From a virus (taxonomy: Duplodnaviria; Caudoviricetes), in IMG/VR virus record IMGVR_UViG_3300032237_000599, positions 1-40,142 of that record: 40,142 nucleotides of DNA. The stretch is one strand, 5' to 3'. Shown one piece after another: positions 12,471 to 26,948 of this stretch. Each line of letters opens with the position of its first letter. The stretch's first letter is position 1. The position numbers were made by a program, and so were the translations under genes. The notes under the pieces were generated by a model, which was not told where the DNA came from, searched no databases, and saw only the letters and a program-made list of their open reading frames with translations.

Positions 12471-12559
12471 GGTCCGCCTGTCCTTTGTTAAGTTGTTAAT
12501 TCTACCATTTAAGAAGAAGGCTGGCAAGTCGCCCTGCCAGCCTCTTCGACCCAACCGCC

Positions 12560-12709
12560 TTACTTAGCCTTACTGACCTTTGGTTCCTCCGTGAAGGTTA
12601 TTCCCTTTGTAAGGGCCTCCTGTAGAGCTACCTTGGCTGCTCCTGAGAAACGGCCACGGGCACCAACTGTAATTCCTTGCTGCTTTAGATATTCACGCTT
12701 TGTAGTCAT
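12560..12709 (-). CDS. Lsr2 DNA-binding-domain-like mini protein (49 aa)
   Basis: MTTKREYLKQQGITVGARGRFSGAAKVALQEA...: RE(W/Y)..G..V..RGR motif; own TTTACA-17-TATAAT promoter and downstream hairpin. Confidence 0.75.
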   Translation of the reverse strand: MTTKREYLKQQGITVGARGRFSGAAKVALQEALTKGITFTEEPKVSKAK

Positions 12710-13915: not shown

Positions 13916-14207
13916 TGTTATACCTTTCGTTAGTTTCATTCATTATATCAGTTGCCACTGACAATAAATGTTCTGTTGCCTGGATTTGTCCCTTTAAATA
14001 ATCATATCCTTCACCTTGAAGAGCATTCTCCAAATCCTGGTTAAGACTAATTAGATGTATCTTCATATACTCTAGGAACTTAGAAGACTTTGTTTCTATT
14101 TTATTATATTCCTCTTGGTCACATCTATAGCATGTAACATTTTCATCCTCCGTATAAAGCATTCCTGCCCCACATGAGGAACACCATGATTGGTCATACA
14201 TTCCCAT
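13908..14207 (-). CDS. hypothetical zinc-ribbon protein
   Basis: CSSC...CYRC. Confidence 0.7.
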   Translation of the reverse strand: MGMYDQSWCSSCGAGMLYTEDENVTCYRCDQEEYNKIETKSSKFLEYMKIHLISLNQDLENALQGEGYDYLKGQIQATEHLLSVATDIMNETNERYNND

Positions 14208-15427: not shown

Positions 15428-15590
15428 TTGATATCCTTTCGTTGATATGGCTTAATTGTAACATGCACCACTGACAATTGTATATAGGATATTCGTGTGA
15501 TTCACACCACATGATCTCAAAGCTTGAGAATTCTGGGAAATATATTTGACATCCGTAAAACACTTATGATACCCTCATGTACTTGTGGGC

Positions 15591-15724
15591 AATAAAAAAC
15601 CCAGCTTGCGCTGGGTTAGATATTTGAGGCTGCTAGGACAAACGAAAGGAAGTAACCTGCCTTACTTAGCGACTAGGAGATCTCCTATTAGCCGCACCTC
15701 AATTTGAAAACAGGCCCCTGGCCT
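15591..15724 (-). ncRNA. candidate anti-RBS small RNA (~130 nt)
   Basis: TTGACA-18-TATAAT promoter (15760-15731), intrinsic terminator ACCCAGC gcaa GCTGGGT TTTTT, no ORF, stem UUGAGG..CCUCAA; carries UUCCUUUCGUUUGU. Confidence 0.65.
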
Positions 15725-15756
15725 AATATAATTATAGTCGACCAAGGGCTCAGTTG

Positions 15757-16161
15757 TCAAACGGAGAGAGTTACATCTGAATACTTTTCCACAAAGGCTG
15801 AAAGGTCCATTGTGAATAGCGCTTCATTCTTCATTCCCCGTACTTTATTGTCAGTATTAGCAAACGTGTCTTCCTCGTGAAGAGAGAAGGTTCGTCCCTT
15901 CCAATCAATGACTGGAATTTTGTGCTCATTATCTGCAATCTCATTTACCTGCAGGCCCCAGCCAGTCTCAGAGGACCAACCGTTTCCAATCATTTGTGAA
16001 ATTGCTATACGTGTTGCATATGATTCATCCGTCCACCGTGGCTCAGCCTTGGCTACAGCCTCAGCCAAGTTAGCAAGCATGCCATGACCTGCCCAGTGTC
16101 CATATAGTACAATTGTCTCGCCGTTGTTCTGCACAAACACGAAGTTCGCTCTATCTCCCAT
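15757..16161 (-). CDS. hypothetical phage protein
   Basis: MGDRANF..VLYGHWAG; ORF track. Confidence 0.8.
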   Translation of the reverse strand: MGDRANFVFVQNNGETIVLYGHWAGHGMLANLAEAVAKAEPRWTDESYATRIAISQMIGNGWSSETGWGLQVNEIADNEHKIPVIDWKGRTFSLHEEDTFANTDNKVRGMKNEALFTMDLSAFVEKYSDVTLSV

Positions 16162-17191: not shown

Positions 17192-17341
17192 TGTATTTCC
17201 TTTCGTTTGGGTTAATGGTGCAATTGTAGCATGCTCCACTGACATTCACAAGGATTTCGGGAAAAAATTTATGTGATCCGTAACACATGCTGCAGGCCCT
17301 TAAGTATGGGGGCATCTCATATATTGATATTATAATCTCAG

Positions 17342-17415
17342 CGACCTGTATGGGACTTGAACCCACGACCTCTACCGTGACAGGGTAGCGCTCTAACCAA
17401 CTGAGCTAACAGATC
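17342..17415 (-). tRNA. tRNA-Asp (GTC)
   Basis: GATCTGTTAGCTCAGTTGGTTAGAGCGCTACCCT-GTC-ACGGTAGAGGTCGTGGGTTCAAGTCCCATACAGGTCG; no encoded CCA. Confidence 0.93.
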
Positions 17416-18465: not shown

Positions 18466-18672
18466 TTTTTTTCCTTTCGATTGGTTGATTGGATTTAGTA
18501 TAACATAGGGGTCTGACATTTACTAGTCTTGGGAGTCATTTGTCCAAATTATGCCATGTGATGAATCTCACAAATTTCTAGGCGTTTTCCACAGGCACCC
18601 GTAAGGCTGTGGATAACCCCCCACTATTGGGGGCAGGAAAGCTGGGGCAGGAATAAGATCCCGCCCCAAGAC

Positions 18673-19187: not shown

Positions 19188-19251
19188 TTTATTTCCTTTC
19201 GTTAGTTGGGTTGGTTGAGCAGTTTTAACACTTGCTCAGGTGTTGGTTTAT

Positions 19252-19915: not shown

Positions 19916-19996
19916 TTTGTTTCCTTTCGTTAGGGGTTTTATTATACAGGGTAGGTCTGACATTTTCTACCCTAATCTCATTATTTAAGTGTGACT

Positions 19997-20742: not shown

Positions 20743-21151
20743 TTGATACCTTTCGTTGTTGGAATAAGAGTATTTTAGCATAGCCCACCGACATTTTTCG
20801 CAACACGCCCCTGTTTATTTGATTTATTTTTGTGATAAACCTCACAAATTCCAGGGTGTGTCGTAACTTGACGTAAGGCAAGTTTTGCCCCCACAACTAT
20901 GAGGGCGGTGTGAGAAATATCACATCGATTTAAAAATAGCCCATATAGCTACTAGGAAGGGCCCTACAATAATTCCAATAAGGCCCCCCAGTGTGATCAT
21001 AGCAGCGATATTAATAAACGTGTCCATTATTTATTTCTCCCAGGACAATCTTCATGAAAATAAGTTATTAGCATATGATCAGGATCCGTTGTTGTTGCTC
21101 CGCATGCATGACATGACCATGATTCTTTTTTGTTAGACATTTTATTTCTCC

Positions 21152-22028: not shown

Positions 22029-22168
22029 AGTTTTTACCTTTCGTTTGAATTAAGAGAATAGTACCATGCGCCACCGACAAATAAAAATCGACACGCCGTG
22101 AATTTTGTGGGGAAAATCACAATGTGTCTTAAATCACATTTTGCCCCCACATCTTTGGGGGCAGCTGA

Positions 22169-23005: not shown

Positions 23006-23060
23006 TATTAGTTTTCCTTTCGTTTGTTTGTTTAGTTATTGTACCGCAAGGGTCTGACAA

Positions 23061-23261: not shown

Positions 23262-23477
23262 AGTGTCACCTTTCGTTTGTTGATAGTCGCAATTATAGCC
23301 TACGGCACTGACATTTTTCAAATCCAAATTTAATTTTCTCAAATAGTAAGACGGCGTGTCGTGTGATTAATCTCACAAAAATTCCAGGGGGTGTGGATAA
23401 CTTTCCTTAACCTGTGGATAACCCCCACATCTTTGGGGGCGAATCAGCTTTTGTCAAGCCGACACGCCCAAGATTAG

Positions 23478-23687: not shown

Positions 23688-23853
23688 TTTAAAGCCTTTC
23701 GTTTGATTTAAGGGAATAATAACATAGTCAACTGACATTTACAAGCGACACGCCCAAAATTCAGGGGATTTATCTATGTGATCTTAACCACATTTTCGCC
23801 CCCACATCTTTGGGGGCGCATTGCCTTTTGTCAAGGCGACACGCCGATAGATT

Positions 23854-24427: not shown

Positions 24428-25252
24428 TTCTGACCTTCTTTCTGTGTTGTTGTTATAGTGGAATTGTAGCATGTGGGACTGACATTTTTGGGACTTTCTT
24501 CGGCGTGTCGGAAATCTTTTTTTTGTGTTTAATCTCACACAAATTCCAGGGGTTTTCCACAACTGTGTATAAAGCTGTGGATAACGCCCCCAAAAAGATG
24601 GGGGCCAGCTGTCGCCCTGTCAAGGCGACACGCCGTTACCCTAGTGTGATTTATCCCACTCTCGGAAATCCGCTACGATCTCCCGCCACATCATGCGCCC
24701 CATATATAGGGCGGGTACGATAAGGGCTATCTGTACTAGGCTAGTTAGTAAGCGATTAAGTGTCATTTAGTATCTACCTCTCTAATATTGTAAGTGAAAC
24801 CTTTACCTAATTTATTTAGTTCAGCAATTACCGCTAAGATTTCTTCAGGCTTACTAGCCTTTTGATTAACGGCTAATAGGTTAGAGCCTTGCCATAGTGT
24901 ATAAGTGATAGTCATTTATTAGTTATCCCAATCTAGTGTTAGTTCATCATCATCATCAAAGTTATCAGTTAAGACATCGCCATTAGCGATAGCCTCTTCC
25001 CATGCTAGGTTTTCTTCTAAGCCTAAGTACATATCGCTTACATCTAATTGGATAGTGTCCCATTTAGTCATCATTTATTTTATTCTTTCGTTAGTAGTTA
25101 TAGTAGGAATTGTAGCCGATAGGTCTGACATTTAGTAGCGACACGCCGTTAGGCGTTAGTGTGATTATGCTCACACTTAGCCTCTATCTCATGTCCAAAC
25201 TCTTCTACGAGTTCTTCATAGACATCATCTATGTAGTCTAGGTAATCGTTCA

Positions 25253-26825: not shown

Positions 26826-26898
26826 TGGACCATAGCTCAGTTGGCAGAGCGGGAAGCTGTTAACTTCTAGGTCCCAGGTTCGAGCCCTGGTGGTCCAG
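26826..26898 (+). tRNA. tRNA-Asn (GTT)
   Basis: TGGACCATAGCTCAGTTGGCAGAGCGGGAAGCT-GTT-AACTTCTAGGTCCCAGGTTCGAGCCCTGGTGGTCCAG. Confidence 0.93.
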
Positions 26899-26948
26899 CT
26901 TAATAAATAAAAAAAATGTTCTTCTTTCGACGACGCACTTTTTTCGCA

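Follow-up and report, generated by a model that had tools for sequence, protein, structure and literature searches.

The window, a 40-kb virus record of 40,142 nucleotides, is DNA from an uncultured phage. Judged by covariation and conservation, its minus strand holds a real, conserved RNA element absent from Rfam. On balance we consider it probable that this element is a sigma-A-driven trans-antisense RNA that covers tagged Shine-Dalgarno sites and so represses translation across a whole gene class. The evidence in hand comprises conservation, a covarying three-way junction, an invariant seed, a class-specific tag, and promoter- and terminator-like sites. Features typical of a trans-antisense sRNA are present as sequence patterns: an own promoter and terminator, no conserved ORF, a conserved structure, and an invariant seed complementary to initiation regions at other loci. 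The coordinates are collected in Table 1.

Table 1. Features of the predicted small RNA, its neighbors, and the leaders it may pair with (window coordinates; lengths are exact matches to the loop unless stated otherwise).
Feature	Position	Strand	Remarks
Upstream 134-aa gene, phrog_31860	15757..16161	-	seed-independent anchor; 3' end overlaps -35 of RNA promoter
Sigma-A-type promoter TTGACA-18-TATAAT, 12/12	15731..15760	-	predicted start about 15724
Predicted 133-nt small RNA	15592..15724	-	5' hairpin, three-way junction, terminator; fold z -2.64
Three-way-junction core	15624..15702	-	P1; P2 with internal loop and P2b; 8-nt linker UAANUANN; P3 with one bulge
P3 loop with invariant seed CUUUCGUU	15638..15655	-	seed at 15641-15648
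Intrinsic terminator hairpin and U tail	15592..15617	-	stem 15617-15598
Convergent promoter-like site TTGACA-18-TACCCT with TGn	15546..15575	+	antisense start near 15582
PafBC-type box and tagged leader	13923..13963	-	9 nt
PafBC-type box and tagged leader, DUF1281_C gene	15435..15476	-	10 nt
PafBC-type box and tagged leader	17199..17244	-	13 nt
PafBC-type box and variant leader ATCGAAAGG, DUF932 gene	18473..18518	-	
Tagged leader without PafBC-type box	19195..19203	-	11 nt
PafBC-type box and tagged leader	19923..19962	-	11 nt
PafBC-type box and tagged leader	20749..20793	-	9 nt
PafBC-type box and tagged leader	22037..22079	-	11 nt
PafBC-type box and tagged leader	23016..23059	-	14 nt
PafBC-type box and tagged leader	23269..23313	-	12 nt
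PafBC-type box and tagged leader	23695..23737	-	11 nt
PafBC-type box and leader AACGAAAGA	25084..25130	-	8-nt seed match

The host of the phage is likely an actinobacterium, because relatives of the anchor gene occur in 39 cultured phage records whose hosts are all actinobacterial, an Lsr2-like protein is among those encoded in the window, and all five near-complete relatives (107-115 kb) encode WhiB. In none of these five was a tyrosine integrase found. The label "lake" used below is based on a freshwater tag on four RNA runs with small shares (0.05-0.09). The anchor gene is also present on three genome-bin contigs, and on two of these the RNA accompanies it. The window also codes for a pyrimidine-dimer DNA glycosylase (PF03013; 5875-6381, plus strand), which fits a UV-exposed habitat.

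From about 12.2 to 25.6 kb the minus strand carries a block of small genes with 17 TGTCRG-N10-TAnnnT boxes, compared with one elsewhere in the window. The published consensus of PafBC-dependent (RecA-NDp) promoters is tGTCgg(N10)tA(N3)T (PMC8635444), and the block boxes fit it by sequence. They share its spacing and consensus and lie on one strand, but they are on a phage and are putative sites. No WYL domain was found in the four near-complete relatives searched for one, so a PafBC-type activator would be the host's. The block is probably expressed early. ARAGORN found two tRNAs only in the window, tRNA-Asp within the block (17341-17415, minus strand) and tRNA-Asn outside it (26826-26899, plus strand), and a tmRNA identity for the RNA unit was thus rejected. 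Oriented intergenic boxes (GC hairpin, TTACG, AAATTTC) recur together with TTATCCACA boxes, which we take to be DnaA-like, ahead of PafBC-type promoters (15490-15590, 17240-17320, 18560-18640, 20830-20910, 23360-23470, 23780-23850 and 24520-24640).

The earlier note on this DNA had proposed a minus-strand RNA unit with its own TTGACA-18-TATAAT promoter and a U-tailed terminator. Both sites are present as sequence patterns. A TATAAT lies upstream of the RNA in 75 of 96 distinct relatives, compared with none of 98 coding controls, and a terminator-like hairpin follows it in 88 of the 96. Eight of the 96 have neither (L161, L162, L186, L189, L191, L204, L206 and L207) while keeping core and seed; in these the RNA would be either a processing product or a functional segment of a longer transcript. 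Overlapping the RNA promoter back to back is a TTGAAA-17-TATAAT (15704-15732, plus strand) directed antisense into the upstream gene. Among metatranscriptome contigs (four runs, unstranded), one spans 15633-15988 with three differences and another record spans 15639-15789 with two; both extend over the RNA promoter, and since strand, end and level are not readable from contigs, neither is taken as evidence for the RNA.

The three-way junction was aligned over 97 distinct sequences, one truncated core being omitted. Over its 18 pairs, 95.8% of cells are paired, against 20-45% in slid controls, and 10 of the 18 base pairs have changed on both sides, spread over all three helices. The seed forms eight invariant columns in the P3 loop with variable neighbors. 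Covariation thus identifies the proposed unit as a conserved structured RNA gene with the seed in a loop. A lone pair in the junction linker (alignment columns 55 and 59) closes a UAA triloop and is C-G in 59 sequences, U-A in 31 and another combination in 7 of the 97. An H-type pseudoknot between linker and loop was rejected for the family as a whole, the complement being present in only 47 of 97; a subgroup may adopt it as an alternative fold. The 3' end of the Lsr2-like gene (12548-12570) reads GCTAAGTAAGGCGGTT, a near-match to the RNA linker without a model match, and this likeness is probably chance arising from the AK-stop ending. The seed is partly unpaired in the ViennaRNA ensemble of the window RNA (unpaired probability 0.13-0.96). 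Relative to the MFE, in which the seed is not mostly unpaired, the conserved open-loop fold is less stable by 2.3 kcal/mol, and across 98 predicted single folds the seed is mostly unpaired in 57%.

Relatives were gathered via the upstream protein with the seed unused, keeping the best 80 of 112 and the best 80 of 386. The core, located with a pattern that likewise leaves the seed out, is present in 158 of 161 loci, the window included. Of the other three, one is at a contig end and two break off into unrelated sequence. All 158 cores contain CUUUCGUU, as do all 99 distinct ones. The covariance model found one copy of the RNA per genome searched. Two seed-free scaffold scans returned 43 distinct lake-type matches, 42 with the seed, 11 Streptomyces-type matches, and 20 chance-like matches without the anchor gene. 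A change of one seed base was found in the relative L401, where the seed reads CCUUUCGAU and four of five leaders still carry AACGAAAG. Two other scans were set aside: a seed-containing pattern scan was mostly noise (the model matched 10 of 100 loci searched), and a 17-nt exact scan gave seven matches, all unrelated.

In Rfam 15 no family matched the unit at the gathering threshold (best E 2.1), the tRNAs being the only matches in the window, and a blastn search with the unit among 50,697 cultured phage records yielded terminator-length matches only. Our literature search found no published description of the RNA. Six files of the supplement to PMC10690425 held no match; the motif could be among its candidates, three files being outside the search.

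The sequence complementary to the seed marks the starts of many block genes. GAAAGG is the actinobacterial Shine-Dalgarno motif. An extended form, AACGAAAGG, occurs 11 times in the window where 0.17 copies are expected, and none of 100 shuffles gets to 11. Ten copies are on the minus strand, each 6-10 nt upstream of an ATG or GTG, and the single reversed copy is on the plus strand at 15641-15649. Re-reading the sequence confirmed all 11 motif coordinates in the earlier note. It also confirmed the pairing lengths claimed there, which were 13 nt with the leader at 17199, 14 nt with that at 23016 and at least 9 nt with the others; for the other eight leaders the exact pairing is 9-12 nt. The reversed copy was said to have no start codon after it; there is a CTG 7 nt downstream, but it is unconserved.

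Nine of the ten exact leaders come with a TGTCRG-N10-TAnnnT box. AACGAAAG accompanies 10 of the 17 PafBC-type boxes in the block and ATCGAAAGG one, with CGAAAG missing at the remaining six; at best, then, some two thirds of the class would be within reach of the RNA. The position of the tag tracks the Shine-Dalgarno sequence rather than the -10 element, with CGAAAG beginning 11-18 nt past the -10. In three complete genomes AACGAAAG is found in 9 of 12, 5 of 12 and 8 of 10 PafBC-type leaders, and in the window in 10 of 16. At other starts, which were called by script with spurious frames included, the same four genomes have it in 1 of 175, 1 of 169, 0 of 179 and 1 of 83. The tag is almost confined to genes with PafBC-type promoters. 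Six to eight of the top ten predicted targets of the loop are PafBC-type genes, compared with 0, 0, 0 and 4 for a generic anti-Shine-Dalgarno sequence. The earlier description of the targets as the PafBC-type regulon is right in that the tag is nearly exclusive to such genes and overstated in that only 10 of the 17 units carry it.

We also examined whether loop and leaders change together. The loop reads ACUUUCGUUGG in 16 of the 99 distinct cores, by which pairing is lost 3' of GAAAG and gained 5' of it. Leaders were chosen by promoter, not by tag; the 118 loci came down to 81 after removal of near-duplicates (eight of the 81 from the seed-containing scan) and to 73 with at least five CGAAAG leaders. 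In the 22 phages with a shifted loop (ACUUUCGUUGG or UCUUUCGUUGG), the share of leaders in which GGAA follows is 0.21, as against 0.58 in the others; CAACG precedes in 0.37 as against 0.18. Among 10 tree-independent (path-independent) pairs, a phage's own loop pairs better than a swapped one in 8.7 on average (range 7-10), and it does so in six of six on a second tree built from six other genes in 55 phages. Tree-aware binary tests on well-supported branches gave median p values of 0.25 and 0.22 (8 pairs) and are not significant. On the second tree all shifted-loop phages fall in one 19-row clade whose unshifted members also have fewer GGAA, so lineage accounts for part of the signal. The joint shift of loop flanks and leader flanks is suggestive, not decisive. 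As a check on the pairing, seed and leader covariation therefore has a divided outcome: the flanks shift as predicted, but the binary tests are not significant and the seed change in L401 is uncompensated.

The nearest precedents are RNAs that pair through loops. In phages P1 and P7, translation of a phage mRNA is blocked when loops of the c4 antisense RNA pair close to its ribosome-binding site (PMC12197685, PMC8198154). Like the window unit, c4 (RF01695) is a phage-encoded structured RNA with a loop complementary to a ribosome-binding site. However, c4 targets the ant mRNA in its own operon in temperate proteobacterial phages, whereas the window RNA has about ten dispersed leaders that share one tag. 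Membership in the c4 family was rejected, with no RF01695 match and no ant/icd-operon genes among the 58 proteins scanned. The 6C sRNA provides an actinobacterial precedent for chaperone-free loop pairing (PMC6486639). Unlike the window RNA, whose seed is U-rich and set in a three-way junction, 6C is encoded by the host and has C-rich loops and host targets; without an Rfam match or C-rich loops in the window unit, membership in that family was rejected too. Actinobacteria are not known to have Hfq. The window RNA would work like c4 and 6C while being a member of neither family. Known phage small RNAs target one phage gene or host genes (PMC12197685), and our literature search found no small RNA that addresses a whole gene class via a shared ribosome-binding tag.

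Closest to the tag are the start-associated sequences (SAS). Cluster K mycobacteriophages and Cluster EF Microbacterium phages have an over-conserved asymmetric motif at the ribosome-binding site that precedes non-structural genes and frequently stands downstream of a promoter motif, with its function still open (PMC3203893, PMC11373665, PMC7302621). Pope et al. note a single reversed SAS copy in four K1 phages (PMC3203893). The window tag is likewise a motif at ribosome-binding sites with one reversed copy, though the SAS have another sequence and promoter type. In Adephagia, Anaya and Amelie we found that the reversed SAS occupies the open loop of a long hairpin between genes. In Adephagia this copy lies in the gap between genes 92 and 93 (L315:30683-30695), within a conserved region matched by 156 mycobacteriophage records; it is exact in three of six aligned phages (L315, L467-L471). 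It has drifted in Ekdilam, Tierra and Keshu (three of six), which keep 14-17 SAS copies, and no compensatory SAS change was found in the phages with a drifted loop. The mirror loop thus drifts in Cluster K phages and is invariant in lake phages. The Cluster K loop is a lead and also a caution for our reading of the window.

The scaffold appears to extend to cultured Streptomyces phages of cluster BE. The model's match to the terminal repeat of the Streptomyces phage Karimac (NC_048724.1) was weak (18.7 bits, E 0.06); the stretch concerned has matches in 86 Streptomyces phage records. In 11 of those records the stretch is preceded by a conserved TTGACA-17/18-TAnnnT, just past the last early-block gene. 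Over these 11 the BE fold has 99.6% of its cells paired, and covariation shows at 9 of 23 pairs. BoomerJR and a lake RNA are identical at 37 of 46 positions aligned over P1, P2 and the linker; the alignment score of 55 was reached by none of 300 shuffles, the best scoring 53. The BE P3 loop is A(A/U)GGUCGG, invariant within the group, and an invariant ACCUUUCAA lies directly 3' of P1. These BE RNAs (L320:640-900 in Karimac, L321-L330) lie in the terminal repeats, are unannotated and have ACCUUUCAA, a hairpin and CUAACUAAC after the loop; a box like the recurring intergenic boxes of the window follows. Three BE loci had no Rfam 15 match at the gathering score. In Karimac a tmRNA, not this RNA, comes after the anchor-gene orthologue (L314:3417-3695), and by eye the tmRNA has no likeness to the unit. 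The complement of the BE loop is not enriched in five genomes, which counts against that loop as antisense to BE leaders and suggests that the scaffold can have another job.

The tag is likewise found apart from the lake loop. Some BE early genes have AACGAAAGG or AACGAAGG despite their different loop. Phage DSL-LC01 has 22 forward and no reverse copies of ACGAAAGG and no match to the RNA model. Within a small-gene block of this phage (L309, record 24-43 kb) lie 21 of the ACGAAAGG leaders, and the three inspected are behind another promoter-like motif, CTAAAGATGTTATA. The tag thus occurs in the absence of the lake loop, and the scaffold with a seed other than that of the lake phages. In the simplest history the scaffold is likely older than the seed, and the lake lineage fitted its loop to a pre-existing leader motif. 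The proposal that the AACGA extension of the Shine-Dalgarno sequence serves as the address of the RNA is weakened by DSL-LC01 (22 tags, no mirror), by the BE loop and by L401.

The main rival to plain antisense action builds on this scaffold. The three-way junction would be a protein-binding platform and the P3 loop an exchangeable guide through which a nuclease, helicase or translation factor is recruited to tagged mRNAs, leading to decay or even activation. Unpaired and junction positions are kept between lake and Streptomyces phages (the 37 of 46 letters, along with the nine covarying BE pairs), the loop is swapped between groups yet invariant inside each, and the lone C-G/U-A pair closing the linker triloop suggests tertiary structure beyond what plain antisense pairing needs. 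However, the BE loop has no repeated phage target, and a compact fold may merely protect the RNA. We regard this reading as unlikely, if worth keeping in view.

We give a smaller chance to the loop mainly imitating the 16S rRNA tail and acting on host mRNAs for host shut-off, or to a leader-independent role of the fold, with the leader match arising from shared copying of GAAAGG. The CCUUUC of the loop presumably resembles the actinobacterial 16S 3' end, and both the invariant ACCUUUCAA of the BE RNAs and the occurrence of the tag without the RNA in DSL-LC01 are consistent with such a role. Yet the invariant part takes in CGUU, the counterpart of the phage-specific AACG extension, the CC-GG pairing is lost in 16 of the 99 distinct cores, and a generic anti-Shine-Dalgarno sequence fails to rank tagged genes first in the three complete genomes.

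Opposite the RNA, a convergent promoter-like site points into it from the 3' side; the earlier note had overlooked both this site and the wider scaffold family. It is found in 67 of 96 relatives (29 are without it), with TACCCT in 52 and TGn in 49 of the 67, and it is specific to this position: of the TTACG boxes, 43 of the 62 next to the RNA have it and none of the 218 at other places. Its transcript, fully complementary to the RNA, is likely an anti-RNA and less likely the functional strand. A plus-strand RNA whose AACGAAAGG acts as a decoy for a tag-reading protein would account for the site, but we think this very improbable. The conserved G-U pairs, one of them invariant, become mismatches on the plus strand, and the minus strand folds better in the window (z -2.64 versus -1.41) and in L001 (-3.49 versus -0.98), L007 giving no folding signal for either strand. 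The minus strand is also the one served by the TATAAT promoter (75 of the 96 relatives) and the U-tailed terminator (88).

The unit had also been called ORF-free. A 40-codon GTG frame does run on the plus strand (15585-15707), but it is unconserved, and no conserved reading frame was found in the unit among the relatives. Starts after the convergent promoter are present in 16 of 67, with unrelated lengths. This frame and the eight relatives without TATAAT and terminator might suggest that we are dealing with a small protein gene, a cis-acting element or a DNA signal instead of a trans-acting RNA. Any of these is hardly credible: core lengths are spread over all three frames (40/32/26), a frame free of stops is rare (5 of 98 cores in sense, 15 of 98 in antisense), and compensatory pairs, G-U included, point to RNA.

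We return to the trans-antisense reading, against which the seed change in L401, DSL-LC01, the six untagged boxes, the accessibility of the seed and the Cluster K drift count. From the patterns above we infer transcription, chaperone-free pairing, repression and timing as follows. The housekeeping-type promoter would have the 133-nt RNA made constitutively, so that it accumulates. Host PafBC, activated by single-stranded DNA, would turn the tagged genes on. The loop CUUUCGUU, the exact complement of the AACGAAAG tag, likely pairs with the leaders of genes with PafBC-type promoters; ribosome loading would then likely be blocked and this probably early gene class damped. The RNA may either set a threshold against leaky expression or shut the tagged genes off later, and the convergent-promoter transcript would neutralize the RNA and so tune the switch.

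If true, a translational off-switch would join a phage program seemingly switched on by a host DNA-damage activator, and there would be a concrete mechanism for start-associated sequences, which have lacked an assigned role since 2011. A broader idea, speculative and itself unlikely to be right, is that large actinophages share a guide-like RNA family with one protein-read scaffold and an exchangeable loop, the lake loop and its anti-RNA forming a DNA-damage-linked timer and the BE loop being aimed elsewhere, probably at host RNA. On this view, the over-conserved start-associated sequences of actinophages would serve such RNAs as address labels. Because a homologous scaffold is present in cultured Streptomyces phages, its expression, structure and protein partners are testable now.
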